A stretch of DNA of 32,000 nucleotides. It comes from Caldivirga maquilingensis IC-167 (GTDB taxonomy: Archaea; Thermoproteota; Thermoprotei; Thermoproteales; Thermocladiaceae). Below, piece after piece: positions 3,938 to 31,249 of this stretch. How positions within the stretch are numbered: position 1 is the first letter of the stretch; each line of letters begins with the position of its first letter. Below the pieces are notes generated by a model. The model had not been told where the DNA came from. It ran no database searches and was given only the letters and a program-made list of their open reading frames with translations. The stretch is taken from NCBI RefSeq assembly GCF_000018305.1, contig NC_009954.1, positions 1,170,001-1,202,000 of the forward strand. The letters are read 5' to 3'. The position numbers and the translations under genes were made by a program.

Positions 3938-4483
3938 ATGGTTAGGTTATTTGTGGCAGTGGACTTATCCGATGAGGTGAGGGGTAAGGTAATTGCCTTT
4001 AGGGATGCAGTATCCAGTAGTGGCGCTGATGTTAAGCCTGTTGAGGATGAGAACCTTCACATAACCCTACGCTTCCTAGGTGAGGTTCGGGATAACCTTC
4101 TTCCTGAAATTATGCGTAACTTAAACTCACTAAGCTTCAGTAGCTTCAGGATGCATGTGAAGGGTACTGGAGCATTCCCATCAGCATCATCCCCAAGGGT
4201 TATTTGGGTTGGTGTCGAGGAGGGTGGTGACCAGCTTAAGGCTCTTCATGATACTGTTGAGGAGTTAGTGGGTAGGTATGGGGTTAGTGATGAGAGGGAA
4301 TTCACACCCCACATAACTGTGGCTAGGGTTAGGGGTAGGGGCAGTGTGTTGGGTAAGTTAATTAACCAATGGAGGGACTTCGACTTCGGGTGGCAGACCG
4401 TGGATTCAGTAATACTTAAGAAGAGTACGTTAACCCCAAGGGGCCCAATATACGAGAACCTACTGATCATTAAGCTTAAGTAA
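3938..4483 (+). CDS. thpR: RNA 2',3'-cyclic phosphodiesterase (2H family, LigT/ThpR)
   Basis: 181 aa with the two H-x-T-x motifs of the 2H fold (HITLRFLG and HITVARV) at typical spacing. Confidence 0.85.
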   Translation: MVRLFVAVDLSDEVRGKVIAFRDAVSSSGADVKPVEDENLHITLRFLGEVRDNLLPEIMRNLNSLSFSSFRMHVKGTGAFPSASSPRVIWVGVEEGGDQLKALHDTVEELVGRYGVSDEREFTPHITVARVRGRGSVLGKLINQWRDFDFGWQTVDSVILKKSTLTPRGPIYENLLIIKLK

Positions 4484-4550
4484 GGGTTAAGGGGGTGCAA
4501 TATTAGAGTTAGGTTTTTAAGCATTACCATCATTTTCAGTTCGAGTAGAT

Positions 4551-5627
4551 ATGCCACAGGTTAGGAGGAGGGAGAAGGCTAGTGAGGAGGTGGAGGAGCC
4601 CATTGGGAATGAGGAGGACACTGAGGCGACCACTGAGCCGTCAGCGGCACCAGTGACCACTGCTCTCCAGTCTCCGTCACAGTCCTATGACGTTGAGGAA
4701 ATAGAGGGTGTTGGTAGGGTTACGGCCCAGAAGTTAAGGGAATCAGGCTACAATACTGCCTTAGACGTAGCCTACGCCGGTGTTAAGGAGCTTGCAGATG
4801 TACTTGGCAGTGAGGATAGGGCTAGGCAAATCATTGCAGCTGCCCAGAGGCTTGTTGGTTTAAACAACTTCGTGACTGCCCTTGAGGTTTATGAACGTAA
4901 GAGGAATGTTCAATACATTTCAACCGGCGTTAAGGCACTTGATGAACTGCTTGGTGGGGGTATTGAGACCAGGGCCATAACTGAGCTTGCCGGTGAATTC
5001 GGGTCGGGTAAGACTAACTTCTGCCATCAATTATCAGTAATGGTTCAGTTACCTGAGGATAAGGGTGGATTAAAGGGTAAGGCACTATTCATTGACACTG
5101 AGAATACGTTTAGACCTGAACGTATTGTTCAAATAGCTAAGTACAGGGGTCTTGACCCTAAGGAAGCGTTAAAGAACATCTTCTATGCAAGAGCCTACAA
5201 TAGTGATCACCAGATGCTCATAATTGATGAGGCCAAGAAGATAATTCCCAAGGAGAACATTAGGCTAATAGTCATTGATTCATTGGTGGCTCACTTCAGG
5301 TCAGAGTACCCTGGTAGGGAGAATCTTGCTGAGAGGCAGCAGAAGCTTAACCACCATATTGCTCAATTACTTAAGTTAGCGGATATATATAATGCAGCCG
5401 TGGTTGTTACTAATCAAGTAATAGCGCAGCCGGATATGTTCTTCGGAAACCCATTGAAGCCGGCTGGAGGCAATGTTATAGCTCATGGAGCCACGTATAG
5501 GATTTGGCTTAGGAAGGGTAAGGAGAATATTAGGGTTGCCAGGATCCTTGACTCACCAATGCACCCTGAGAGTGAGGCGACGTTTAAAATAACTGAAGAA
5601 GGGCTTATTGATGGTGAACCACAGTAG
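4551..5627 (+). CDS. radA: DNA repair and recombination protein RadA
   Basis: HhH region [12 protein letters not shown], Walker [15 protein letters not shown] and Walker B LIVIDS are present. The sequence aligns end to end with crenarchaeal RadA as I remember it. It has an extra acidic N-terminal extension of about 35-45 aa. Confidence 0.95.
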
Positions 5628-9215: not shown

Positions 9216-10568
9216 ATGACTAGGAAAGTAGTCATAATAGGTGCCGGTGCCGCGGGTGCATCGGCGGCTGCTAGGGCTAGGAGACTTGACCCTGAGGCTG
9301 AGGTTACCCTTATTGATAAGGGGCCATTAATCAGTCACGCACCCTGTGGAATACCATACTACATAGGTGGTGTTGTTAAGGATGCTGGTGAATTAGCCGT
9401 ATATAGCCCGGAGGAATTCGCCAGGGAGAGGAGGATTAATGTTAGGGTTAACGCTGAGGCCATTGATGTTGATTCAAGTAACCGCATAGTGCTTGTTAAG
9501 GAGGGTAATAGTGTTGTTAAGTATGAGTGGGATGTCTTAATATTAGCCACTGGGGCTAAGCCAATAGTACCATCAATTGAGGGAAATGACTTGAGGGGTG
9601 TGTTGACGCTTAGGCTCCCCCATGAGGCAGGTAGGCTTAGGGAGGAGGCGTTGAGGGCTGATAAAGTGGCTGTAATTGGGGGTGGTTACATAGGCCTTGA
9701 ACTGGCTGAGGCCTTAAGGGCATTGGGTAAGAGGGTGATGCTCTTTGAAATGATGCCTCACGTCCTACCCTCAACCCTAGACGAGGACTTAGCTAAGCTA
9801 ATACATGATGAGTTAATTAAGAATAACGTGGAACTACACTTAAGCGAGAAGGTTGTAGGGTTCCGTGGTGTTAATGGGGAGGTTAAGAGTGTTATAACTG
9901 ATAAGGGTGAGTATAATGTTGATAAAGTATTCATGGGGGTGGGGGTTAGACCTGACGTGGACTTAGCCTTAAAGGCTGGTGTTAAGCTTGGTGAAACTGG
10001 TGCAGTTTACGTTAATGAGTACATGGAGACCAGTGTACCGGGTATTTACGCTGCGGGTGATGTGGCTGAGACGTGGAGTATGGTGACGGGGAGGAGGATG
10101 TATGTTGCCCTTGCCCCACCAGCCAATAAAATGGGTCAGGTGGCGGGTGCTAACGCGGTTAAGGGTAGGTTCCTAAAGTTCCCGGGGGTGCTTGGTACTG
10201 CGATAACTAAGGTGTTTAACCTATACGTGGCTAGGACAGGCTTAACGGAGAGGCAGGCTAGGGAATGGGGATTTAAACCATACTCAGCCACCGTTAAGGT
10301 TAAGACAACAGCCCACTACTACCCCGGGGGTGGTGTTGCCACAATAAGGCTTACAGCAGATGAGGATACTGGTAGGGTTATTGGAGCGCAGGTGATTGGT
10401 AATGATAGGCTCATTGCAGGTTACATTGATACTGCAGCAGCCTTAATAGGTAAGGGGGCTACTGTTGATGACTTCTTCTTCGCCGACTTATCCTACTCAC
10501 CGCCAACTGCACCTGTGTGGCATGGTTTAATAGTGGCTGCTAGGGTTCTCTCAAGGGGTAAGTATTAG
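9216..10568 (+). CDS. FAD-dependent pyridine nucleotide-disulfide oxidoreductase, NADH oxidase / CoA-disulfide reductase family
   Basis: FAD-binding GxGxxG (IIGAGAAGASAA), a single redox Cys in SHAPCGIPYY typical of Nox/CoADR, a second dinucleotide fold VIGGGYIGLE, and AAGD are present. Confidence 0.9.
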   Translation: MTRKVVIIGAGAAGASAAARARRLDPEAEVTLIDKGPLISHAPCGIPYYIGGVVKDAGELAVYSPEEFARERRINVRVNAEAIDVDSSNRIVLVKEGNSVVKYEWDVLILATGAKPIVPSIEGNDLRGVLTLRLPHEAGRLREEALRADKVAVIGGGYIGLELAEALRALGKRVMLFEMMPHVLPSTLDEDLAKLIHDELIKNNVELHLSEKVVGFRGVNGEVKSVITDKGEYNVDKVFMGVGVRPDVDLALKAGVKLGETGAVYVNEYMETSVPGIYAAGDVAETWSMVTGRRMYVALAPPANKMGQVAGANAVKGRFLKFPGVLGTAITKVFNLYVARTGLTERQAREWGFKPYSATVKVKTTAHYYPGGGVATIRLTADEDTGRVIGAQVIGNDRLIAGYIDTAAALIGKGATVDDFFFADLSYSPPTAPVWHGLIVAARVLSRGKY

Positions 10569-12636: not shown

Positions 12637-14373
12637 TCACTCGATGGTGAAGTCTTGGAATTCACCCTTATAACTACTCCACTTAATGTTTAATTCCCTC
12701 ACTTCCGCAATATTAATATTCCTCAGCGACTCTATGAACGCCTTAATATTACCCTCCTCCCCCTCAACAATTATGAGGACTGAACCATCCTCATTATTCC
12801 TAGCAAACCCTGTTAATCCAAGGGATTTAGCATTCCTCCTCACTAATGGCCTAAACCCAACCCCCTGAACCTTCCCCGTAACCATTATCTCAGCCCTCGC
12901 AAGCCTCAATGCTGCCTGTCTAGAGACGCCTTGAAGAATATTGGAGGCTATGGTTAGTTTAGTAAGCATAACCTTATCCTTAATATACCTAGTCACGTAG
13001 TCGGGAACTATTAGGGTGCCTTCACCCCTACCCACGACTTCACCTATCACCATTGGCTTTAAGCCAGGTATCTTCCCTAATTCATCTAATACATCATCAA
13101 CCAGTCCACTGGAGACCACTAGTGCCACTGCACCATTTGTGCCAGCGGTGGCGTCTGAAATAATGTAGTTTGATGCAGCGAATTCAGCAACCTCAGGGCT
13201 TATTAAAGGTATGTTACTTAACCTAATCTTAACATTAGCCGTCTCGGCGAGCTCCTTAAAGACAAATATCCCTGGGCCACTAATATCTATTGTTGCGGCA
13301 ACGTGTTCATCATCATTGAATCTCCGCCCAAGTTCAGGTAAGTGATTGTAAATTACCTTAGCAACATCAATGTTCGGTTTAGCCATTTGATTCAAGGCAT
13401 ACTCCTTAATCTCCTCAAGCTCATCAACAGTCATGACCTCCCTCTCAAACTTATCGTATAACTCCTCATCAACGTGAAGAGCAACGTAAGTCCCTATTAT
13501 GCTTAATTCACCGAAGGGCCTAGTTACAATAATCTTAAAACCCTCCTTAACCTCATTATAGAACATCGGTGGCTCCCTATCAAGCCTACTGGCCACCGTG
13601 GAGCCTATTAGTAAGTAACCTAGATTAGGCTGCTCAACATCATGCAGCCTCCCACCTAGCTCATTGACGTAAGCCTTAACCTCATTAAACAATCCATGCT
13701 TATACTCACCTGGTGCATCATACACTGGGTAGAATTCAAGGTCCTTAAAGGCACCCTTTGAGAATAAGTCATTGAGGGCATTATTTAATGCAACTGAGAC
13801 CTGTCTACGGGACGCTATTTCATCCATTGGATCTATGACTTGTATAGTATCATTGTTAACTAGGGTATAGGCATCATCCTTATTCTTAACCTTAATGAAA
13901 TCCAGGACATGAATACTGGCGTTGGGTTGAGTACTCACTATACTATGACCCTTACCTATAACTAACTCCTTATTAACCTTAGCCAGCTCCTTAAATAACC
14001 TTATCATAATGTTAGCGAATGAATCAGGATCGCTGGCGTTGCCTTGAAAAGACTCAACGAGTAGTATTAACGCATCAGGGTTAAAGTCACTAATAGTGTT
14101 AATGGGTAGCTTCGGTGAATCAACACTAGTTATAACCCTCATTAAATCTAATTCACTACCCCTGAGGACTGCCACATCCTCGCGTGGAGCTATTTTAATA
14201 TGTAATTCACCCAGTTCCCTCTTCACAATGGATAAAGCTGGGTAGAGCACGTTATAGAGGTCAACCTTAACGGAGCATCCCAATGCAAGTGAAGTTAAGT
14301 TAACCCCTATGGAGGCGTACTTACTAACATGCTTCAGGAATCTGCTCATTCTCTCTTCTTTACTTACCTTCAT
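12637..14373 (-). CDS. SelD/PurM-superfamily (selenophosphate-synthetase-like) protein with a large insertion and a C-terminal acylphosphatase domain
   Basis: SelD-like landmarks appear in order: N-terminal LALGCSVKV (the Cys-x-x-Lys loop), DVAVLRG...ITSVD, ALNNALNDLFSKGA, IIVTRPFGEL, ISGPGIFVFKEL and TNGAVALVV. The last ~90 aa (VTGKVQGVGFRPLVRRNAKSLGLTGFARNNEDGSVLIIVEG) carry the acylphosphatase signature. ATG 14373 sits behind a TATA box and is preferred; the track start at 14421 remains possible. Confidence 0.8.
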   Translation of the reverse strand: MKVSKEERMSRFLKHVSKYASIGVNLTSLALGCSVKVDLYNVLYPALSIVKRELGELHIKIAPREDVAVLRGSELDLMRVITSVDSPKLPINTISDFNPDALILLVESFQGNASDPDSFANIMIRLFKELAKVNKELVIGKGHSIVSTQPNASIHVLDFIKVKNKDDAYTLVNNDTIQVIDPMDEIASRRQVSVALNNALNDLFSKGAFKDLEFYPVYDAPGEYKHGLFNEVKAYVNELGGRLHDVEQPNLGYLLIGSTVASRLDREPPMFYNEVKEGFKIIVTRPFGELSIIGTYVALHVDEELYDKFEREVMTVDELEEIKEYALNQMAKPNIDVAKVIYNHLPELGRRFNDDEHVAATIDISGPGIFVFKELAETANVKIRLSNIPLISPEVAEFAASNYIISDATAGTNGAVALVVSSGLVDDVLDELGKIPGLKPMVIGEVVGRGEGTLIVPDYVTRYIKDKVMLTKLTIASNILQGVSRQAALRLARAEIMVTGKVQGVGFRPLVRRNAKSLGLTGFARNNEDGSVLIIVEGEEGNIKAFIESLRNINIAEVRELNIKWSSYKGEFQDFTIE

Positions 14374-14395
14374 CAATACCGCATTTCCTGTATTG

Positions 14396-14403
14396 AATTT
14401 AAA
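14396..14403 (-). promoter_or_regulatory. TATA-like box (TTTAAATT on the minus strand) for the SelD-like gene
   Basis: Centred about 26 nt upstream of ATG 14373. Confidence 0.4.
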
Positions 14404-14441
14404 GGAATGATCATTATGCATTTTATGCCTAGGTATTTCAC

Positions 14442-14451
14442 ATCTAAAAAG
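14442..14451 (+). promoter_or_regulatory. TATA-like box (ATCTAAAAAG) for the TusA-like gene
   Basis: Centred about 25 nt upstream of ATG 14472, and about 45 bp from the divergent TATA. Confidence 0.4.
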
Positions 14452-14471
14452 AAGCTTAAGTAGTCTCCATT

Positions 14472-14702
14472 ATGAGTACCCAGTATGAGATAAATGTTAG
14501 TGGTATGAGCTGCCCAACACCGTTAAACGTGGTGGCGAGGGAATTGGTTAAGGTGCCTATTGGGTCAAGGTTCGTGATAAAGACTGATGACTACGTTTGC
14601 TATATGATGCTTCTAAGGTTCTTGAAAATACTAGGGGAGTCCGTGGAGAATAATATTGAGCAAGGTAACTCCTACATAATTATTGGGGTCAGGAATACTT
14701 AA
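14472..14702 (+). CDS. TusA/SirA-like sulfur-carrier protein (CPxP motif)
   Basis: 76 aa. The N-terminal VSGMSCPTPL matches the TusA-family G-x-x-CPxP active-site motif, and the size fits the family. Confidence 0.8.
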   Translation: MSTQYEINVSGMSCPTPLNVVARELVKVPIGSRFVIKTDDYVCYMMLLRFLKILGESVENNIEQGNSYIIIGVRNT

Positions 14703-15625: not shown

Positions 15626-16840
15626 GTGACTGGGATTAGGATAAGGCCTGAATTATGCTTGGCGTGTAAGGGATACAGGAACCTATGTGGATTACCCAAG
15701 TGCCCGCTCCTGGAGAGGAGGATTACGTTAAGTCGAATTGAAAAGTACATTAATGGTAATGTTAATGGGTCCTCACCCCCATCAGTGGTGGTTGGTGAGC
15801 ATGGTTACCCATTAGTAAGGGTTATGATTGGTATACCGCCTAACGTGCATGGTGATGCAGCCTCAAGTTACGATAACCCAAGTGAATGGTGGGGTAGGTT
15901 AAGTTTATTCGATATTATTAGGCTTAGGTCATCCATGGTTGCTGCATCAACCACTGTTAAGGTTAATAACGTTGATAAACTCTATGATAATGAATTAGCA
16001 CCAGCATCAGTATCAGAGCGGCCTGTGGATATGGAGGCTTTACTTAAGGGTAAGTTAACTGGAGTCAGCATTAATGAACTACTAGCCCCCACTCCCCCCT
16101 CAGTTAGGGCGTTGAGTATTAGGATTAATGATAATCCCAAGGTACCTAAGCCCATTGAGAAGTTAATCAACGATGATGCTGAGGCCAATGATGCTGTTTG
16201 GGAGGCCTACAGGGCAGGGATTAGTGTTTACTCATTAATAAGGGCATTATCAGTGGGTATGCTGGGTAGGAGGAGGAATCGAAGACTAGTACCCACTAGG
16301 TGGGCCATTACTGCTGTGGATTCAATCATAGGTAATAGATTGAGGAGTAGAATCAAGTCAATGCCTGAGTTAAGCGAGGATCTACTCTTCTACGGCGAAT
16401 ACCTGGGTAATAGATTCATTATAGTGCTTAGGCCTGGTGCATATAGGGCTAGGTGGATTGAATTATGGTACCCGTCCTCAGCCCTTGTCCTAGGTAATGA
16501 GGCTGCTGTTCACGTTGTTGATGAGGATTATAGGGGTAGGGTTAATGACATGGATGGTGGCTTTTACGCAGCTAGGTTATCTGCATTAGAGTACCTTAGT
16601 AGGATTGGTAAATCAGCTGAAGTAATAATATTTAGGGAGGTTCTTCCAGAGTACTTCGCAACGGTTGGTAATTGGCATATTAGGGAGACTGTTAGGAGGG
16701 CTTTTGAGAAGGGCCCAATTAGTAAGGGTGATGAAGTTTACTCAACATTAGTTAATTTACTTAAAAGCAAGGAAATAGTAAAATACATGCCCAGTAGGCT
16801 TAATCGTATTACAGATTACATGGGTGTTAATAATGGTTAA
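15626..16840 (+). CDS. Nre-family (NreA/NreB-like) putative DNA-repair protein
   Basis: 404 aa with a GTG start. The N-terminal Cys cluster CLACKGYRNLCGLPKCPLL and the overall length match my recollection of the archaeal Nre family (former DUF650/DUF651). No search was run. Confidence 0.65.
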   Translation: MTGIRIRPELCLACKGYRNLCGLPKCPLLERRITLSRIEKYINGNVNGSSPPSVVVGEHGYPLVRVMIGIPPNVHGDAASSYDNPSEWWGRLSLFDIIRLRSSMVAASTTVKVNNVDKLYDNELAPASVSERPVDMEALLKGKLTGVSINELLAPTPPSVRALSIRINDNPKVPKPIEKLINDDAEANDAVWEAYRAGISVYSLIRALSVGMLGRRRNRRLVPTRWAITAVDSIIGNRLRSRIKSMPELSEDLLFYGEYLGNRFIIVLRPGAYRARWIELWYPSSALVLGNEAAVHVVDEDYRGRVNDMDGGFYAARLSALEYLSRIGKSAEVIIFREVLPEYFATVGNWHIRETVRRAFEKGPISKGDEVYSTLVNLLKSKEIVKYMPSRLNRITDYMGVNNG

Positions 16841-17534
16841 GGTGAAGCCAATAACTGAGGTGGAGACACTGATATTCCATAACATACTAGCCATAGTGCT
16901 TCTAGTACTCATGGTGATGCTCTACGACATCCTAGCCAGATACATGTTCAGAGTACCAATAGGTGTGGGTACTTCATTATCAATTCTACTATTCCTCCTA
17001 TTGGTTTCATCAGCAATGGTTCTACTCACCAGGGTCTATGTTAGGGAGAGGATTATAACCTGTAGAAACGCCAACAGCCTAGTAGGCGGTGTTACGGCGT
17101 TACTGTATATTTCAATATACTCAGCCTTAACCTACCAGTCACCCTATGCTATGGCTGCAGCTGTATTAATGGGTATTGTATTAGGCTTCGGAGTATACAT
17201 GACAACCCTGGTTGATGCCTCAATATGCCAAAAGATACCAAGCATTAGTATTAGTTTAATTGATCCTCAGCTTGAGTTTAATAAGGTCATACTGGTGAGG
17301 AATAGGGTTACAGTGGGGAGTGGTAGGGATAGTGATGTAATCCTACCTGTTAAGGCGGCTGACTTATTCATTACAATAATTAACAATAAGGGTAAGGTAA
17401 CTGTTACCGGTAAGGGTCTCATGATTGAGGATAAGGGTAAGCTTAGGAGCATTGATTCAGTGGAGATAGGTGTGGGTGAATCCTACATCATATGGATTAA
17501 CAATGTTAAGGTTAAGTTAACCCGCCTAAGCTAA
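16833..17534 (+). CDS. Membrane protein (4-5 TM) with a degenerate C-terminal FHA-like domain
   Basis: ATG 16833 overlaps the Nre-like stop by 8 nt (ATGGTTAA). The C-terminus VTVGSGRDSDVILP...VEIGVGESYIIW has the FHA G-R...D..L and terminal beta pattern but lacks the SxxH and NG motifs. Confidence 0.55.
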   Translation: MVKVKPITEVETLIFHNILAIVLLVLMVMLYDILARYMFRVPIGVGTSLSILLFLLLVSSAMVLLTRVYVRERIITCRNANSLVGGVTALLYISIYSALTYQSPYAMAAAVLMGIVLGFGVYMTTLVDASICQKIPSISISLIDPQLEFNKVILVRNRVTVGSGRDSDVILPVKAADLFITIINNKGKVTVTGKGLMIEDKGKLRSIDSVEIGVGESYIIWINNVKVKLTRLS

Positions 17535-17583
17535 GCTTAATTTAATAATACTTAAGAGTGTACACTGGGCTAAAAGCATATAA

Positions 17584-18024
17584 ATGCCCACTGGATTAGA
17601 TGCCGCGATGCATAATAATAAGGGTAATGCCACCCTTAACGTTAAGGATCTAGGAGCAGAAACAACCAGCCGTGTTGAGCAGAAGCCGGTGAAAAGGATT
17701 AGAATAACCTTCATAGAATCAACCACTGACTCACTTAAGAACACAGCTGTGGATCTTGACGTAGTGTACTTCGATTCAATAACCATAGGAAGGGCACCGG
17801 ACAACATAGTGGTTATACCTGATATAACGGTTTCAAGGAGGCATGCAGTAATATCCAGGGACTCCAGTGGTTCAATAGTTCTAGTTGACTTAAACAGTAA
17901 GAATGGTACATACGTGTATAATAATGGTGTTTTTGAACGCGTTAATAAGGTTGAATTAAAGGATGGAATAGTGATAAGGCTAGGCATATACACTATAATA
18001 AGGATAAATCTGATTCAGGGATAA
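17584..18024 (+). CDS. FHA domain protein
   Basis: A canonical FHA signature is present: ITIGRAPDNIVVIPDITVSRRHAVI...LVDLNSKNGTYV...LKDGIVIRLG. Confidence 0.85.
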   Translation: MPTGLDAAMHNNKGNATLNVKDLGAETTSRVEQKPVKRIRITFIESTTDSLKNTAVDLDVVYFDSITIGRAPDNIVVIPDITVSRRHAVISRDSSGSIVLVDLNSKNGTYVYNNGVFERVNKVELKDGIVIRLGIYTIIRINLIQG

Positions 18025-18094
18025 GATCCAAGGCACTGTAACTAGTAATTAAGTAATATGCCTCATGATTGAATACGTGTACTAAGTAACCATG

Positions 18095-18377
18095 CCTGAC
18101 CACTCGCCCTGGAGGGTTGGGTTTTCTTTGGACGGCTTATTGGCTTGTGGTTTACCGTCTTCATTCTCACTGCTTCACTGCCGGTGGGGGCTTCCCTTCA
18201 CCCTGCTCTGCTCGTCCAGCGGTAGACCACGGGCTAGGTCTTCAGCCCAATTACCCCTATCCCTCCATGGGACTCGGGGGTATGTGGAGTGGTCCCTCAT
18301 GTGGGAACACTTGAGTAAACCATCATAAACCCCACCATGAGAATGAATCCCCTACACAGGATAACCCCACCAATCCC
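18095..18377 (-). ncRNA. GC-rich structured ncRNA; candidate SRP (7S) RNA, class unconfirmed
   Basis: This is the only strongly GC-rich island in the window, and no credible ORF lies in it. Long-range complementarity forms a rod: 18098-18105 pairs with 18287-18294 (8 bp), 18111-18116 with 18261-18266 (6 bp), and 18147-18157 with 18220-18230 (10 of 11). A local hairpin lies at 18231-18248. The 5' part has two hairpins with GGUGGGG loops and a UGUAG element reminiscent of an SRP Alu domain. A TATA-like box lies about 25 nt upstream. The strand call rests on these motifs and on the promoter. Confidence 0.5.
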
Positions 18378-18402
18378 AATAAAGCATTAAACCCTACCCC
18401 GC

Positions 18403-18410
18403 CTTAAAAA
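18403..18410 (-). promoter_or_regulatory. TATA-like box (TTTTTAAG on the minus strand) upstream of the structured RNA
   Basis: It would place the transcription start near 18377 (GGGAUUGG...). Confidence 0.4.
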
Positions 18411-18453
18411 GGTGAAGCTCACCGTCCTTTGTCACACGCTTAAGTTAAATTGG

Positions 18454-20040
18454 TTAGGATTGTAGAGGGGTTGTTAAGATGCTTAGTACAGTAATAACCT
18501 CATCAATGCTTGGACGCATTTGAGGATTCATGCTTAGGCTTCTCAGTATAATGTCGGTGAGTAGTGGGGGTATGTGTGGATCCATGGGTGGTGTAATGCC
18601 TCTTAAGATGTATTGCTGTGGGTTAAAACCCATGAGCATCTCATACATTATTAAACCCAGGGAGTATACGTCAGCCCTATCCGTGGCTGCCTTATTCATG
18701 AGAACCTCAGGGGCTGAGTATGCTAGGGAGAATTGAGATATTTCAACACTCTGCCCTGCGTAAACCCTTGAAGCCCCTAAGTCACCGAGCTTAACTACCC
18801 TCCTATTCTTATCCTTGAATAGGACGTTCTCAGGCTTAAGATCAAGGTGAAGCATACCCATGCTGTGTAATTCCTTTAAGGCAATAGCCACCTCATACGC
18901 AATTCTAACAGCCTCACCTACACTTAGTTTTCCCTTCTCCCTAAGGTAACGTCTCAATGACCCATACTCCATGTAATCCATAACTATGTATGGTGGATCC
19001 TCCAGGTAAGACTCCAGGTTCCTGTAGGGTAATTTATCCTCATTTATGTGTATTTCATAAACCTTAACCACCCTATCACTGTTAACTAGTAGGTAACTGG
19101 TCATCTCTCTCTTAAAGGATTGAACAACCTTCAAGTCACTGGCTAAGGGAGTGTTACTAGGGCTGGTGTATCTGAGAACCTTAATGGCGTACTTCTCATT
19201 ACCGTAACGACCCAGTAACACGTAGCTGAATCCCCCAGTGTCAATAACCTTCTCAACGTAGTAACGGCCACCAATCCATGCATCAACCCATGTTTCAGGC
19301 GGCGGCACACCCCTATGGTATCTCACTTTCCTGAATGTTGCCAGTGCCGGTATTAGTAGGAGTGATGCTTGGGGGATAAAGATTAGTGAGGTTGATGATA
19401 ATGCAATAGCTAAAGCCCGCTTAAGCCTACTTGACTTAACCATTGGTATCGTTAACACGAAGCTCGCTAAAATGCTTAGTGAAGCTTGAAATAAACTGGG
19501 TTTTAATCTTTGACTAAGTAGAATTAGTATAAGTGGGAGTATTGAGAGAATATACATTACCCAGGATGGGTACCTGTAGGTTGATTGAAGAGGACCATTG
19601 TAGGCTCTTATCGTAATGTACATTAGCAGTAGGAAGCTGAATATCATGTATATTAAGGAGTATGTAGCGGCTGATGAAGCAACCACAAGTACGTAGTAGA
19701 CTCCAACTAGGAGGTAACGTGACCAGGCTGGTAATTGAATTACAGTTAATGAAACAGCTATTGAAACCCCCACCATTACTACCAGTTCACTTATGAACCC
19801 CAGTGAATTAAGGTTACTGTATGTGATTAAGGCCAGGGCCAGGTACAGTGCGCTTATTGTTGCGTAATTCTTAGCGAAGGGGAATAGGAGTACTGGAAGC
19901 ATGGTTAAGGTGGTTGCTATTATCATAATCATGCTCTCATTAAACGTTATCCCAACTGCCGTTACCAATACTGCTAAGGCTAGGGTTTCAGTAATCCTCT
20001 CAATCAAGTCATAGTAACTGTACCTTGGTTCACTGCGCAT
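18454..20040 (-). CDS. Membrane-anchored Hanks-type Ser/Thr protein kinase
   Basis: The N-terminal ~260 aa are polytopic, with at least 8 hydrophobic helices. The C-terminal kinase domain has the G-loop GGFSYV, the Lys in YAIKV, the catalytic loop HLDLKPENV, DLG and SAPE. ATG 20040 is preferred because the only TATA box lies 8 nt from the track start at 20058. Confidence 0.9.
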   Translation of the reverse strand: MRSEPRYSYYDLIERITETLALAVLVTAVGITFNESMIMIIATTLTMLPVLLFPFAKNYATISALYLALALITYSNLNSLGFISELVVMVGVSIAVSLTVIQLPAWSRYLLVGVYYVLVVASSAATYSLIYMIFSFLLLMYITIRAYNGPLQSTYRYPSWVMYILSILPLILILLSQRLKPSLFQASLSILASFVLTIPMVKSSRLKRALAIALSSTSLIFIPQASLLLIPALATFRKVRYHRGVPPPETWVDAWIGGRYYVEKVIDTGGFSYVLLGRYGNEKYAIKVLRYTSPSNTPLASDLKVVQSFKREMTSYLLVNSDRVVKVYEIHINEDKLPYRNLESYLEDPPYIVMDYMEYGSLRRYLREKGKLSVGEAVRIAYEVAIALKELHSMGMLHLDLKPENVLFKDKNRRVVKLGDLGASRVYAGQSVEISQFSLAYSAPEVLMNKAATDRADVYSLGLIMYEMLMGFNPQQYILRGITPPMDPHIPPLLTDIILRSLSMNPQMRPSIDEVITVLSILTTPLQS

Positions 20041-20064
20041 TTCAGTTAAGCAACCCATGTAGGG

Positions 20065-22072: not shown

Positions 22073-22405
22073 ATGAATTATAGGGTTGTTGCACAGGTAT
22101 CGGATTTGGATAAGGTTAAGGCGGCGTTGGTGTCCTGCAGGAACCTGCTTGAGGATTTAGGTAACGTGCAGCTTGAGGTTGTTTTCAATCAAATGGCAGT
22201 TAGGGCATTAGTCAAGGGTAGTGAGTATGAGGGTGATGTTGATGAGCTTATTAAAATGGGTGTTCTTATTGTTGCCTGTAGGAATGCCATGAGGTTGAAT
22301 AATATTAATGAGGGGGATTTAATTAACGGTGTCGCCATTGTTAATGCTGGGGTGGGGGAAATTGTGAGGAAGATGGCTGATGGTTGGCTATACTTAAGGC
22401 TGTGA
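22073..22405 (+). CDS. DsrE/DsrF-like (COG1416-type) small protein
   Basis: 110 aa. VVFNQMAV, the Cys in IVACRNAM, and the C-terminal GVAIVNAGVGEIVRKMADGWLYLRL pattern match the DsrE-like family. Confidence 0.65.
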   Translation: MNYRVVAQVSDLDKVKAALVSCRNLLEDLGNVQLEVVFNQMAVRALVKGSEYEGDVDELIKMGVLIVACRNAMRLNNINEGDLINGVAIVNAGVGEIVRKMADGWLYLRL

Positions 22406-25659: not shown

Positions 25660-26802
25660 TTAGTGAAAAACCAATGGCGAATACTTGCTAACATACGGGT
25701 ATTTACCCAAAGCCTCCTCATTCACATTAACCCCGACTCCACTGTTCATGAGCCTTGATAGGCTTACTTCACCATCCTTAACCTCAACATCCACATTATA
25801 TATATCCTTAATCCAGGACAATGGCCACTCAACAATAGCTATATTACTTACCACTGAGGCGACGTGGAGTGTATATAAGTGGGTGAGTATTGACTTATGG
25901 GGTCTATGGTGAGGGGCCACTGGTTTACCTAACGTTGATGCTTCCTTAATAATATCCATAAACCTAATTAAACCCCCCACCTTGGATACATCTGGTTGAA
26001 TATACATTAACTTAATGCGCGCCAACTCCTTGAAACCACCTATGTAGTACTCATTCTCCCCAGCAGCTATGGGTACCGGTGACTTATCGGCAACATGGGT
26101 GAGTAATTCATAATTATTCGGAGGCCATATTGGTTCCTCAACCCAATAAGGCTCATACCTATGCACCTTATTCAGGAAATTCAATGCCTCCTCAGGTTTA
26201 TTGAAGGCGGCGTTTAAGTCTAAGGCAACCTTAACACCATAACCCATGTTTTCCCTAATGGCCTTAATTGAGTCAACGGTATCGTTAACGTGTTGATGAA
26301 GCTTAACGGTGTTGAATCCATTACTTAACGCCTTATCAACAGCCTTAACAACATAATCCACCGTTGAGTACCTGGGGAAACTGGCGTAAACCGGTACCTT
26401 ATCCCTAATCCTAACACCCAGTAATTCACTAATAGGCTTATTAAGGTACTTACCTAAAGCATCCCAGAGCGCCATCTCAAGGCCACCCATGGCGCCTGAT
26501 ACAACACCACATAACCCTGCCGTGAATAGGAGCTTCTCAAGCTTATTAACCAGCCTATGCACGTCACCCACATTCTCAATAACCTCACCAGTGACCGCTG
26601 GGATTATTACATCATTAAACACCCCAATGTATGAGTCAATGATATTACTACCGTAAACAAGCACCTCACCCCAGCCTATTAAGTCCCCTAATTCAACCTT
26701 CACGTATAGTTGACGACCCCAAGCCTCCTGAAATACTGTGGGTGGATCATCAATGTACGGTATTGAGACTGGTATTAACTTAATGGTGTTTAACTTAGGC
26801 AT
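25660..26802 (-). CDS. Enolase-superfamily enzyme (mandelate racemase/muconate-lactonizing family; probable acid-sugar dehydratase)
   Basis: The barrel ligand pattern is present: VKLH, ALDLN (Asp), WVEEP (Glu), AAGENE (Glu), IQPDVSKVGG and a late HH. Confidence 0.85.
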   Translation of the reverse strand: MPKLNTIKLIPVSIPYIDDPPTVFQEAWGRQLYVKVELGDLIGWGEVLVYGSNIIDSYIGVFNDVIIPAVTGEVIENVGDVHRLVNKLEKLLFTAGLCGVVSGAMGGLEMALWDALGKYLNKPISELLGVRIRDKVPVYASFPRYSTVDYVVKAVDKALSNGFNTVKLHQHVNDTVDSIKAIRENMGYGVKVALDLNAAFNKPEEALNFLNKVHRYEPYWVEEPIWPPNNYELLTHVADKSPVPIAAGENEYYIGGFKELARIKLMYIQPDVSKVGGLIRFMDIIKEASTLGKPVAPHHRPHKSILTHLYTLHVASVVSNIAIVEWPLSWIKDIYNVDVEVKDGEVSLSRLMNSGVGVNVNEEALGKYPYVSKYSPLVFH

Positions 26803-26808
26803 TATTAC

Positions 26809-27984
26809 TCACGCACTCACGTATAGTTTAATGGGTGAGAATTCATCATGCTGAAGCGCCTCAGCTGCGGTTAATCTACCATTCATTACCCTTAACGCGT
26901 AGTTGAAGATCCTATCCCCAGCCTCCTGTAGGCTAACCTTAAGCTCCAGTAGGTCTGATACATCAACGTCAATGTGCTCACCCATTGCCTTAACGGTCTT
27001 TGGGTTGGCTGAAATCTTGATAACAGGTATTATTGGATGACCCACCACGTTACCTTGACCTGTGGTGAAGAAGTGAAGCACAGAGCCCTTAGCGGCGAAT
27101 AACGTCACAGCCTCCGCGGCTGCTGATGAAGTGTTAACGAAGCATAAGCCCCCGTTCCTTGGTACTGGGTCCAGGTAATCGGCAACACACGTAATTGGCC
27201 TAGTGCCTAATTTCTGAATGTTGCCTAGTGCCTTCTCCTCTATTGTTGATAAACCGCCTTTAATATTGCCTTCAGTTGGCTGTGAACCAAGTAGGTCAAC
27301 GCCTTCCCTTTCAATTACCTCAACGTACTCGTTGTAAATCCTCATGAATTTACTCCTTAACTCAGGATCCTTTATGCGACTGGCTACAATATCCTCAGCC
27401 CCCGTTAGCTCTGAGGTTTCACCAAACATTACCGTATTCCCTAAATCCACCAACTTATCCACAGTATGCCCTAATGCTGGGTTTGATGCTAAGCCTGATG
27501 TGGTGTCTGATTCACCGCACTTTATACTGAACACTATGCCTGTTAAATCAACCTCAGTTCTCTGCTGCTCACCAGCATCCTGAACAAGCTCCTTAGCCTT
27601 CCTAGCCGCTGCCTCAATGGTTTTTAAATCACCATTACCCTCAATACTGAATACGTAAACCGGCTTACCCGTCTTAGCTATCACATCAGCAACCTTATTA
27701 GCCCAATTATCCTCAATACCAATAACTATGGCGCCGTATACATTGGGATTAGCCCCAGTGCCGGATAATACATGGAATAGTAGATTCAAGTCCCTACCGA
27801 ACTGTAATCTACCGTATGGGTGCGGTATAGCCACAGTACCCCTAATTAACTTAGCCACACCTAAGGCGGCTGTGTTTGATAAGTCATCAATGGGTATTAT
27901 GGCTACGTGGTTCCTTACCCCTACGCTTCCATCAGGCCTAATGTACGCCTTAATGGTTGGGTATTTGCCAGCCACATCACTCAC
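26809..27984 (-). CDS. UxaA-family (altronate/galactarate-type) dehydratase, large C-terminal subunit
   Basis: 391 aa with a GTG start overlapping the upstream stop (GTGA). The sequence is typical of the UxaA C-terminal domain (GVRNHVAIIP..., CGESDTTSGL, FTTGQGN). Confidence 0.85.
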   Translation of the reverse strand: MSDVAGKYPTIKAYIRPDGSVGVRNHVAIIPIDDLSNTAALGVAKLIRGTVAIPHPYGRLQFGRDLNLLFHVLSGTGANPNVYGAIVIGIEDNWANKVADVIAKTGKPVYVFSIEGNGDLKTIEAAARKAKELVQDAGEQQRTEVDLTGIVFSIKCGESDTTSGLASNPALGHTVDKLVDLGNTVMFGETSELTGAEDIVASRIKDPELRSKFMRIYNEYVEVIEREGVDLLGSQPTEGNIKGGLSTIEEKALGNIQKLGTRPITCVADYLDPVPRNGGLCFVNTSSAAAEAVTLFAAKGSVLHFFTTGQGNVVGHPIIPVIKISANPKTVKAMGEHIDVDVSDLLELKVSLQEAGDRIFNYALRVMNGRLTAAEALQHDEFSPIKLYVSA

Positions 27985-28280
27985 CTTTTACTTAAGTTAC
28001 CCCACCTTAATGATTTTAGATTATGTGTATGAACATGTTCCCCAGCCTTAATATCCTTCACAGCAACCCCAATTACCCTACCATACTTAATAACCTTCTC
28101 CCCAGCCTTAATATCCCTTAAAGCAATCTTATGGCCAAGTGGAATATCCTCAATAGCCTTAACTATAGGTCCATTGGACTTATCCTCAATGTATACGCCG
28201 TGAGCCTCCTCCCCGGCACTTATATCATCTATGGCTACCCCCACGTTATCCTCCTTATTATGTATCGCGAACCTAGCCAT
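27981..28280 (-). CDS. SAF-domain small subunit of the UxaA-type dehydratase
   Basis: 99 aa with duplicated DIKAGE motifs and GEHVHTHN, typical of the UxaA N-terminal SAF domain. Confidence 0.85.
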   Translation of the reverse strand: MARFAIHNKEDNVGVAIDDISAGEEAHGVYIEDKSNGPIVKAIEDIPLGHKIALRDIKAGEKVIKYGRVIGVAVKDIKAGEHVHTHNLKSLRWGNLSKR

Positions 28281-30082: not shown

Positions 30083-31249
30083 ATGGGTGTTTTGGATAAG
30101 TTAGGTGTACGTAAGGTTATTAATGCCTGTGGTACACTCACAGTACTTGGTAGTAATAGGGTTAGTTCAAGGGTTTTAGAGGCAATGAGGGAGGTTGCGG
30201 ATTCCTTCATTGATATGAATGAACTCCTAGTTAAGTCAGGGGAATACATTGCCAAGTTACTAAATGTACCCGGTGCATTAGTAACAAGCGGTGCCGGAGC
30301 CGGCTTAGTACTGGCTGTTGCAGCAGCTATTACTGAGGGTGATGTGGATAAGATGAGTAGGTTACCCTTCACTGATGGGTTAAGGAATGAGATTATTATC
30401 CAATATCCACACACAGTGGGTAATCCATACGTTTACCTCATTAATATTCCAGGGGGTAGAGTAAGGATTGTGGGTTCACCAAGTGGTGTTAATGAAAACG
30501 ATATTAAGAATGCCTTAAATAAAAACACAGCCGCAGTACTTCACTTCCAGTATGAGCCACAGGAGGGTGAGGTGCCTTTAAGTAAGGTTATTGATATTGC
30601 CCATGAATTTAACACGCCAGTTATAGTTGATGCCGCTGCCGAACTGCCACCATTACTTAACTTAACAAGGTTCATTAAAATGGGGGCTGACTTAGTAGTG
30701 TTCAGTGGCGGTAAGGATATTGGTGCACCCGGTGATACAGGCTTGATTCTGGCTAATAATTTAAGGCTCCTTGAGGCGTGTAGGTTAATGAGCCCATTCA
30801 GTTACATTAATGTTAATGGGCAATCCAGGGTATTCATAGGTAGGGTAATGAAGATTAGTAAGGAGGATATTGTAGCCCTAGTCGCGGCACTGGAGGAGTA
30901 CGTTAAGGTTAATCATGAGGAGAGGTTAAGTGTAATGAATAAGATGGCTGATGAAGTAATAAGTGAATTAACCGCAGTATTACCGGGTATTAGGATTGAG
31001 AAAAGGCTGAATCATCCTGGGGAGAGGATAAGGCCGGTAACAGTACCTAAGGTTGAGATTAAGTTACCGAGAAGGTACACGGAATTATACATTAAGTTAC
31101 TAAGGGAGGGGGATCCACCAATATACGCATGTGAATGTGAAGGTAATTTATGCATTAACATGCATACGTTAAGCCAGGATGAGGTTCCCATTGTTATTAA
31201 CAGGTTAAAGGAGGTGATTAGTAGGTATCCGCCAGTAACTAATCAATGA
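30083..31249 (+). CDS. SelA-like (L-seryl-tRNA selenium transferase-related / DgaE-like) PLP-dependent enzyme
   Basis: VINACGTLTVLGS at the N-terminus, VTSGAGAGLVLA, and the PLP-lysine region VVFSGGKDIGAPGDTGLI parallel SelA FSGDKLLGGPQAG. Confidence 0.7.
   Translation: MGVLDKLGVRKVINACGTLTVLGSNRVSSRVLEAMREVADSFIDMNELLVKSGEYIAKLLNVPGALVTSGAGAGLVLAVAAAITEGDVDKMSRLPFTDGLRNEIIIQYPHTVGNPYVYLINIPGGRVRIVGSPSGVNENDIKNALNKNTAAVLHFQYEPQEGEVPLSKVIDIAHEFNTPVIVDAAAELPPLLNLTRFIKMGADLVVFSGGKDIGAPGDTGLILANNLRLLEACRLMSPFSYINVNGQSRVFIGRVMKISKEDIVALVAALEEYVKVNHEERLSVMNKMADEVISELTAVLPGIRIEKRLNHPGERIRPVTVPKVEIKLPRRYTELYIKLLREGDPPIYACECEGNLCINMHTLSQDEVPIVINRLKEVISRYPPVTNQ

Follow-up and report, generated by a model that had tools for sequence, protein, structure and literature searches.

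What does a protein built like a selenophosphate synthetase do in an archaeon with no known selenium trait? The question is raised by a divergent gene pair in a 32,000-nucleotide stretch of Caldivirga maquilingensis IC-167 DNA (NC_009954.1, positions 1,170,001 to 1,202,000; hereafter the window, to which all coordinates refer). On the minus strand, positions 12637 to 14373 carry a coding sequence for 578 amino acids plus a stop codon, in which a SelD-like body is fused to an acylphosphatase (AcP) domain. On the plus strand, positions 14472 to 14702 encode a 76-residue TusA-family sulfur carrier, with an active-site cysteine in the motif G-M-S-C-P-T-P. The original prediction, made from the letters of the window, was that the pair might serve sulfur or selenium activation and transfer. 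We favour an ATP-dependent module that would activate TusA-delivered sulfur by a thiophosphate-type mechanism, and we give this reading a probability of about one half.

The large protein has been described before. Under the name 'SelD-like_Caldivirga_maquilingensis', an identical sequence appears in the supplement to the paper by Li, Jiang, Ni, Liu and Zhang (2014; BMC Genomics 15:908; PMC4210487). These authors defined a SelD-like family in Sulfolobales and Thermoproteales, and C. maquilingensis IC-167 is included in Table S1, in Fig. S1 and in the accompanying sequence file. They reported the AcP fusion in all Thermoproteales, and found SirA-like (pfam01206, that is TusA) and COG2210 genes adjoining the SelD-like gene. 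The family is also curated as the NCBIfam equivalog NF038049 (SelD_rel_HyperS, 'SelD-related putative sulfur metabolism protein'). The Caldivirga protein belongs to it, matching model positions 2–464 of 465 at 6.7e-204 (678 bits against a cutoff of 250). Hence, the fusion with its TusA neighbour is a rediscovery rather than the novelty implied by the original prediction, and its function was already posed as a question for this exact gene in 2014. A 2026 review still terms that function speculative. Our additions to the 2014 account are an apparent second PurM-type domain nested in the first, a general linkage to AcP, an association with YeeE, a wider phyletic range and a conserved intergenic palindrome.

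Placement of the SelD-like body within the PurM superfamily was a point on which the original prediction could have failed, since the region might have belonged with ThiL, HypE or PurM. The outcome favours SelD by both profile and fold. With the AcP domain removed, NF038049 still scored 678 bits. Of the two NCBIfam SelD models, TIGR00476 and NF010705, one scored 41.8 bits (cutoff 291) and the other 19.7 bits (cutoff 125), and the HypE equivalog TIGR02124 scored 15.7 bits (cutoff 251.6); these last three scores are below cutoff. The ThiL and PurM models gave no match even at E <= 10. Searched against PDB sequences, a profile of 52 family sequences found human SPS1 (2e-8), E. coli SelD (6e-3) and HypE (8.5e-3). 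The AlphaFold2 model is confident, with a predicted local distance difference test score (pLDDT) of 91.9 and a predicted template modelling score (pTM) of 0.80. Its best 15 Foldseek matches are all selenophosphate synthetases, starting at 2.4e-15; HypE follows at 6e-12 and then ThiL. The canonical PurM/SelD-type N-domain core spans residues 167–268 (13570 to 13875, minus strand) and contains the NNDT strand and the NALND helix; hhalign pairs it with SelD sequences at 97% probability (E 3.4e-11). Residues 269–477 (12943 to 13569, minus strand) form an AIRS_C-type C-domain with D363-x-x-G-x-G and T-A-G-T-N-G motifs. The SPS1 match of the family profile falls on this region, and the Pfam AIRS_C match is weak (1.3e-3, under the gathering score). 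Taken together, the protein is closest to SelD, yet it is not a SelD.

Is the catalytic machinery of SelD retained? Conservation was read from 52 aligned members, of several phyla and 31–89% identity, and residues are numbered as in the 578-residue protein. The N-terminal loop of catalytic type (G32-C33-S-V-K36-V-D38, a Cys-x-x-Lys loop; 14260 to 14280, minus strand) has invariant G32, C33, K36 and D38. Also invariant are D66, R79, G140, K141, H143, N173, N174, D175, T176, D181, N198, N201, D202, D363, G366, G368, T409, G411, T412, N413 and G414. By motif and secondary-structure register with E. coli SelD, C33 and K36 correspond to Cys17 and Lys20, D66 to Asp51, D175 (in NNDT) to Asp68 (in TTD), N198 and D202 to Asn87 and Asp91, and D363 to Asp227. 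The SelD-type catalytic set, made up of the G-C-x-x-K loop, the Asp residues that bind metal and phosphate, and the Asn, is intact. The landmarks named in the original prediction (LALGCSVKV, NALNDLF and IIVTRPFGEL) are all in place, as is VTGKVQGVGFR in the AcP domain. In Fig. S1 of Li et al. (2014), where the catalytic residues are marked and this protein is included, SelD's Sec/Cys-x-x-Lys (Sec, selenocysteine) is aligned with the C33 loop; SelD Asp68 is paired with D158, not D175. From the alignment we prefer D175, because its strand directly precedes the NALND helix and 'NNDTIQVIDP' parallels 'TTDFFMPIVDNP' ungapped. Members of the pattern-checked sets contained no Sec at the Cys-x-x-Lys loop.

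A group of divergent full-length relatives (P0130, P0136, P0137, P0142, P0144, P0149 and others) has 430–490 residues and scores 250–400 bits against the family profile. Relatives of the P0130 type do not have the exact family forms of C-x-x-K-x-[DE], GKGH, NNDT and N-x-L-N-D, and may be inactive or re-purposed paralogues.

Between the catalytic loop and the N-domain core lies an inserted domain of ~95 residues (72–166; 13876 to 14160, minus strand) with the order beta-alpha-beta-alpha-beta-beta. An insertion had been predicted and it exists; the proposed size of ~110 residues and the proposed position after the 'ITSVD' strand were both wrong. 'ITSVD' (residues 80–84) lies inside the insertion as its first strand, and its Asp is not conserved. 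The equivalent of the SelD 'TTD' strand is NNDT (residues 173–176), which is located after the insertion. Every family member has the inserted block, which is hence a family-wide feature, and Sulfolobaceae copies have a loop shorter by 12 residues. Within it, R79 and G140-K141-G-H143-S (GKGHS) are invariant and D158 is nearly so. The canonical SelD 'GGH(S/T)' strand is degenerate at its usual position across the SelD-like family. The main text of Li et al. (2014) is silent on the block, which their Fig. S1 shows as gaps in SelD.

Predicted alone from a 29-sequence alignment, the inserted block gave a confident fold (pLDDT 92, pTM 0.81). Its Foldseek matches are almost only to the PurM superfamily (HypE 2z1u at 6.5e-4, PurM, SelD and ThiL), with TMq values of 0.5–0.67 over ~100–115 columns. 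Because of these matches, we take the predicted structure to be a second PurM-type domain nested in the first, most likely of the N type. By sequence, hhalign of the insertion with the canonical N-core was not significant (E 0.024, 2% probability), nor was hhalign of the insertion with SelD (E 0.08); the best local alignment of the latter pairs GKGHS with GGHT. SelD forms a dimer through an eight-stranded barrel, with its ATP pocket between the two chains (PMC7595633). Hence, the extra domain, which bears the invariant GKGHS, may take over in cis a part that falls to the partner subunit's N-domain in dimeric SelD.

The C-terminal part of the protein is a complete acylphosphatase, as had been predicted. 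The domain covers residues 489–578 (12640 to 12909, minus strand), with a V-x-G-x-V-Q-G-V-G-F-R cradle and a catalytic Asn in 'ARNNEDGSV'. A flexible linker of residues 478–488 (12910 to 12942, minus strand) joins it to the SelD-like body and is the sole segment of the AlphaFold2 model with pLDDT below 50. Pfam PF00708 matches the C-terminal 83 residues at 4.1e-24 (85 bits against a cutoff of 22.5). Sulfolobus solfataricus AcP (2bjd) was matched over its full length by phmmer (1.3e-15), and by Foldseek with a template modelling score of 0.94, a root-mean-square deviation of 0.9 Å and 42% identity. The phosphate-cradle Arg and the catalytic Asn are retained, 'VQGVGFR' and 'ARN' aligning to the corresponding positions of the Sulfolobus enzyme. 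The catalytic set of the domain is intact.

The 76-residue product of the divergent gene matches Pfam PF01206 at 1.6e-12 (47.5 bits against a cutoff of 28.6) and contains the CPxP motif ('MSCPTP'). Against the equivalog for E. coli-type TusA it scores 16, below the cutoff of 78. Hence, it is a family member and not a TusA orthologue. Two classes of TusA occur at SelD-like loci; one overlaps the start of the SelD-like gene and the other follows AcP. The divergent protein in the window belongs to the class found downstream of SelD-like/AcP in other genera, and is 44% identical to the Vulcanisaeta copy. The original domain calls of a SelD-like enzyme, an intact AcP and a TusA partner are therefore correct. 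What had been noticed is real, far beyond chance, with the boundary of the insertion now corrected.

How general is this arrangement? The SelD-like family is rare, with 97 clusters at E < 1e-30 among 1.84 billion representatives. In species-representative genomes it occurs in Thermoproteales, Sulfolobales, Desulfurococcales, Acidilobales, Pyrodictiaceae and Ignisphaera. Further lineages are Thermofilaceae, Methanomethylicia, Hydrothermarchaeales, Geothermarchaeota, and marine and groundwater Thaumarchaeota, together with metagenome-assembled genomes (MAGs) of Halobacteria and Methanobacteriota and one Acidobacteriota MAG. The range is thus wider than the Sulfolobales and Thermoproteales of the 2014 description. 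The carriers include marine and groundwater Nitrososphaeria, lineages that neither are hyperthermophilic nor reduce sulfur, and this weakens the family name's framing as 'hyperthermophilic S-reducer'.

Gene neighbourhoods were surveyed at 80 species-representative loci, scored with hidden Markov models seeded from Pfam-annotated neighbours. AcP is fused to the SelD-like gene at 18 of these loci, all in Thermoproteales. At 35, spread over many other orders, it is a separate gene no more than 150 bp downstream, often overlapping, and at the other 27, mostly in Sulfolobaceae, Thaumarchaeota and Halobacteria MAGs, it is absent nearby. A TusA gene lies within 400 bp of the SelD-like gene at 66/80 loci. 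The linkage to TusA and AcP is conserved across phyla. A YeeE/YedE-type transporter gene is found within 600 bp at 16/80 loci, the typical order being YeeE-TusA-SelD-like-AcP; this cassette occurs in Pyrodictiaceae, Desulfurococcales, Thermofilaceae and Geothermarchaeota. The Caldivirga pair is a version of a conserved archaeal cassette, (YeeE/YedE-like transporter)-TusA-SelD-like-acylphosphatase-TusA.

Other genes of sulfur metabolism recur at these loci. Genes for rhodanese and for DsrE-like proteins (termed 'COG2210 Prx-like' in the 2014 paper) are found repeatedly, and the DsrE-like ones directly adjoin the SelD-like gene in Vulcanisaeta and Pyrobaculum. The Pyrobaculum locus is also adjoined by genes for a DsrAB-type sulfite reductase, ATP sulfurylase (Sat) and Hdr-like proteins. 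The Hydrothermarchaeales locus has ThiF, TusA, DUF169 and a cysteine desulfurase, and one MAG contig (L009) has ThiF and a JAB protein. In the window itself, there is no YeeE/YedE-type transporter gene within 4 kb of the SelD-like gene; beyond that distance, the window was covered by a scan for Pfam families, open reading frame (ORF) by ORF. No COG2210 'Prx-like'/DsrE-like gene stands beside the SelD-like gene, the only DsrE-like ORF being 7.4 kb away. That ORF (110 residues; 22073 to 22405, plus strand; 7.4 kb from TusA) matches DsrE/DsrF marginally, at E 1e-4 and 22.9 bits against a gathering score of 22.7.

Several individual loci stand out. In eight Thaumarchaeota MAGs (L073, L074, L076, L078–L081 and L087) the order is SelD-like-TusA-TusA-rhodanese, with no AcP nearby. 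The Acidobacteriota MAG contig (L065; 406,733 bp) has a full-length SelD-like member at 4001–5401, followed by TusA and rhodanese genes, with AcP ~1 kb downstream; either the gene has passed horizontally into bacteria or the contig was binned wrongly. A SelD-like fragment (P0118) is labelled Fraserbacteria. Thermocladium modestius JCM 10088 (L028; P0065; 4001–5614) has a SelD-like ORF of 397 residues and a separate AcP ORF 91 bp downstream, unlike other Thermocladium genomes, in which the two are fused. The split probably reflects a frameshift, loss of function as a pseudogene, or a fault in the assembly. A 382-residue protein from a JGI metagenome (P0110) has Pfam CbiX and Acylphosphatase domains, and over its residues 141–284 it matches the C-terminal end of the SelD-like body (profile positions 331–473), with 51% identity to the Caldivirga protein. 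This is a different fusion unless the gene call is chimeric or truncated. A 78-residue neighbour in S. acidocaldarius was considered as a TusA and rejected, the only match being a weak one to an Rpc34-type winged helix-turn-helix.

What chemistry would such a set of genes serve? Li et al. (2014) proposed that a thiophosphate compound is made from sulfide and ATP, or from acyl phosphate. The sulfur activation and transfer module of the original prediction amounts to the same hypothesis, arrived at independently. It is plausible and partly supported, and it is strengthened here because the gene neighbourhood is conserved in the loci surveyed. In this scheme, TusA would load the mobile Cys33/Lys36 loop with sulfane sulfur in persulfide form. 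At the PurM-type ATP site the sulfur would then be phosphorylated, as selenium is by SelD, and the products would be AMP, Pi and either thiophosphate or a phosphorylated sulfur species bound to the enzyme or to a carrier. The tethered or co-translated AcP would bind or hydrolyse a phospho-anhydride or thiophosphoryl intermediate or product. A second TusA, DsrE or rhodanese would pass the sulfur onward.

Several observations weigh against this scheme. AcP is missing from the neighbourhood at 27 of the 80 loci, and no sulfur genes were found near the SelD-like gene in Methanoperedens loci. In the window, the flanking genes are of a housekeeping kind (DNA ligase, aldose epimerase and NreA), with TusA the sole sulfur neighbour. 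A plain SelD-like reaction does not account for the role of AcP, as Li et al. (2014) had noted. No thiophosphate-consuming enzyme is among those identified. The duplication, or pseudo-dimer, idea draws on similarity of predicted folds, the sequence signal not being significant. The literature searched contained no experimental study of any family member, only the 2014 paper and the reviews that cite it.

A more specific proposal joins the structural and genetic observations. In this joint reading, the extra domain would make the protein a pseudo-dimer within one chain, its one active site being composite, and TusA-SelD-like-AcP would be a thiophosphate sulfur-donor system that needs neither a cysteine desulfurase nor an external reductant. 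Thiophosphate, formed by the SelD-like part out of ATP and the sulfur brought by TusA, would attack acyl-adenylates or acyl-phosphates, for example on ThiF/E1-activated ubiquitin-like carriers, and AcP would cleave the S-P bond of the acyl-thiophosphate to leave a thiocarboxylate. We regard this elaboration as speculative and unlikely. If true, it would give AcP its first dedicated biosynthetic role and identify a missing archaeal sulfur donor.

The broader thiophosphate or activated-sulfur hypothesis, if true, would make the SelD-like family the sulfur counterpart of selenophosphate synthetase. The mobilisation of sulfur by archaea, for cofactors and for the thiolation of tRNA, would then have a candidate explanation. 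The present analysis adds experimental handles, namely a conserved three- to four-gene cassette (TusA, SelD-like, AcP and TusA, with or without YeeE) across many archaeal orders, and a second PurM-type domain with mutable invariants R79, K141 and H143. Genetically tractable Sulfolobales hosts carry the SelD-like gene.

Which other explanations fit the same evidence? One is ATP-driven release or processing of sulfane sulfur, as opposed to the making of a biosynthetic donor. Phosphorylation would fall on the terminal sulfur of a persulfide on TusA or DsrE, or on that of a thiosulfonate, and the resulting P-S or P-O-S species would at once be hydrolysed by AcP. Thiosulfate or polysulfide taken up by the cell would thereby yield sulfide or sulfite, to be assimilated or used in energy metabolism. 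The fusion, overlap or adjacency of AcP at 53/80 loci fits a short-lived phosphorylated intermediate. Also in its favour are the cassette of YeeE-like transporter, TusA, SelD-like protein and AcP in several lineages, the DsrAB, Sat and Hdr-like neighbours in Pyrobaculum, and the co-occurrence of the family with AprAB (Li et al., 2014; PMC4210487). Conversely, such a cycle would be energetically wasteful, and copies that have no AcP beside them also occur in aerobic Thaumarchaeota of marine and groundwater origin and in Sulfolobaceae. We consider this explanation unlikely.

A genuine selenium enzyme is distinctly unlikely. Such an enzyme would make selenophosphate, or a related activated selenium species, for an unrecognised archaeal use of selenium, with TusA and YeeE/YedE acting like YedF and YedE. 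In bacteria, the co-occurrence of SelD, YedE and YedF is linked to selenium metabolism, and the linkage of TusA-like and YeeE/YedE-family (PF04143) genes to the SelD-like gene mirrors it. The SelD catalytic set is fully conserved and SelD is the nearest family by both sequence and fold; Li et al. (2014) considered a selenium role not completely excludable. The same study, however, found no known selenium-utilisation trait in any Sulfolobales or Thermoproteales genome, and in C. maquilingensis IC-167 all such traits (SelA/SelB, PSTK/SepSecS, YbbB and YqeB/C) are absent (PMC4210487). Both SelD equivalog models fell far short of their cutoffs, the pattern-checked loops contain no Sec, and the neighbours (DsrE, rhodanese, DsrAB, Sat and ThiF) are classic genes of sulfur relay and sulfur energy metabolism.

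Two features of the window touch on selenium. No tRNA genes were found in its 32 kb. A 'SelA-related' pyridoxal phosphate enzyme at 30083 to 31249 (plus strand) was considered as selenium machinery and rejected as a DgaE-family ammonia lyase in a sugar-acid cluster. It scores 221 bits with the 'selA_rel'/DgaE family (cutoff 385), with a weak match to SelA, and is probably concerned with sugar-acid catabolism because it lies beside sugar-acid dehydratase genes at 25660 to 28280.

A kinase or ligase of the PurM superfamily with a non-sulfur small molecule as its substrate is improbable; in that case, the adjacency of TusA would stem from regulation or from an unrelated history of the operon. The superfamily does span diverse ATP-dependent chemistries, R79, K141 and H143 of the extra domain could form a new substrate site, and some loci have no sulfur genes nearby. 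Such an enzyme would nonetheless leave hard to explain both the invariance of the SelD-specific Cys-x-x-Lys loop and the adjacency of TusA at 66/80 loci from several phyla, where the stop and start codons often overlap.

The alternative offered in the original prediction, a HypF/HypE-like logic in which AcP would cleave carbamoyl or acyl phosphate and the PurM-type domain would use ATP to dehydrate or activate a Cys-bound acyl group or thiocarbamate, has little to recommend it and is very improbable: HypF does begin with an AcP domain, the AcP of the window matches HypF structures at 1.4e-8 and HypE is the second-best family by fold and profile, but the Pfam-annotated loci have no YrdC-like, Zn-finger or Kae1-like HypF domains, no YrdC/Kae1-type carbamoyltransferase domain and no hydrogenase-maturation genes, the invariant Cys belongs to the N-terminal G-C-x-x-K loop of SelD type whereas that of HypE is C-terminal, the C-terminus is AcP and has no C-terminal Cys motif, and the AcP itself is closest to the stand-alone archaeal enzyme of S. 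solfataricus.

How might the two genes be expressed? The maximal ORF for the SelD-like/AcP protein (12637 to 14421, minus strand) would give 594 residues, and a further in-frame start at 14349 would give 570. We take the ATG at 14373 to be the probable start, because 578 residues is the length both of P0001, a database protein with 100% identity, and of the sequence that Li et al. (2014) published. The ATG at 14419 to 14421 overlaps a conserved palindrome in the intergenic region. The gap to the TusA gene is 98 bp from position 14373, close to the ~100 bp originally noted, 50 bp from 14421 and 122 bp from 14349.

The putative intergenic control region (14374 to 14471) contains two A/T boxes and the palindrome. 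A TTTAAA box (14398 to 14403) is ~27 bp upstream of the SelD-like ATG and a TCTAAAAAG box (14443 to 14451) is ~25 bp upstream of the TusA ATG, much as the original prediction of back-to-back TATA boxes would have it. The palindrome, GCAT-TTT-ATGC (14418 to 14428), lies between them. We aligned the region from six sequences, those of the window, three Caldivirga loci and two Thermocladium loci. TTTAAA is kept in 6/6. The TCTAAAAAG box is kept in the Caldivirga sequences that cover the site; one Thermocladium sequence (L014) is A/T-rich there instead, and the other Thermocladium is not. The palindrome is likewise kept in 6/6, taking the form TGCATAATATGCA at the same place in Thermocladium. It is a candidate operator because it is conserved although the flanking proteins are only ~51% identical between Caldivirga and Thermocladium. 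The arrangement is consistent with back-to-back promoters for leaderless transcripts that would share an operator.

Beyond the pair, a Pfam scan of the flanks identified DNA ligase, aldose 1-epimerase and NreA, and only TusA adjoins the SelD-like gene. A pyridine-nucleotide disulfide oxidoreductase (9216 to 10568, plus strand) is encoded at a distance of 2 kb from the locus. Its closest match is CoA-disulfide reductase (458.6 bits against an equivalog cutoff of 578.8), and it could be a sulfur or disulfide reductase of the NSR/CoADR type. Separate from the SelD-like finding, a cluster at 16824 to 20058 comprises a membrane protein without an assigned family (16824 to 17534), an FHA-domain protein (17584 to 18024) and a 534-residue Ser/Thr kinase (18454 to 20058, minus strand). 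It is a putative archaeal phospho-signalling module.

How does the Caldivirga protein compare with characterised systems? With SelD and SPS it shares the G-(Cys/Sec)-x-x-Lys loop, Asp equivalents of SelD Asp51, Asp68, Asp91 and Asp227, an Asn87 equivalent and an AIRS_C-type C-domain. It differs from SelD by the extra domain of ~95 residues between the first and second strands of the N-domain, by the loss of GGHS at the canonical site, with GKGHS present in the extra domain, and by its linkage to AcP in organisms without known selenium traits. HypE and HypF offer a likeness of parts: a PurM-superfamily ATP-dependent enzyme with a flexible Cys (HypE, the second-best structural match) and an AcP-domain protein that handles acyl phosphate (HypF). 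Unlike that system, SelD-like loci are without other HypF domains or hyp genes and the Cys is N-terminal and of SelD type; HypE is below SelD in every comparison, whether by profile, fold or NCBIfam model.

PurL (FGAM synthetase) provides a precedent within the PurM superfamily, in which duplicated N-type domains in one chain replace a homodimer. The SelD-like protein would likewise have a second PurM-type domain in one chain, here nested in the first. Conversely, only the N-type domain appears duplicated, with no second C-domain, and PurL is absent from the best 50 Foldseek matches of the AlphaFold2 model. The genetic context resembles YeeE/YeeD (TsuA/TsuB) thiosulfate uptake and the selenium-linked pair YedE/YedF, in that a PF04143-type membrane protein and then a TusA-like protein are encoded directly upstream of the SelD-like gene at the 16 loci with a transporter; coupling to a SelD-like/AcP enzyme is absent from the characterised YeeE/YeeD system. 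With the SelD-like family of Li et al. (2014) and NF038049 the correspondence is complete, and nothing differs for the C. maquilingensis gene.

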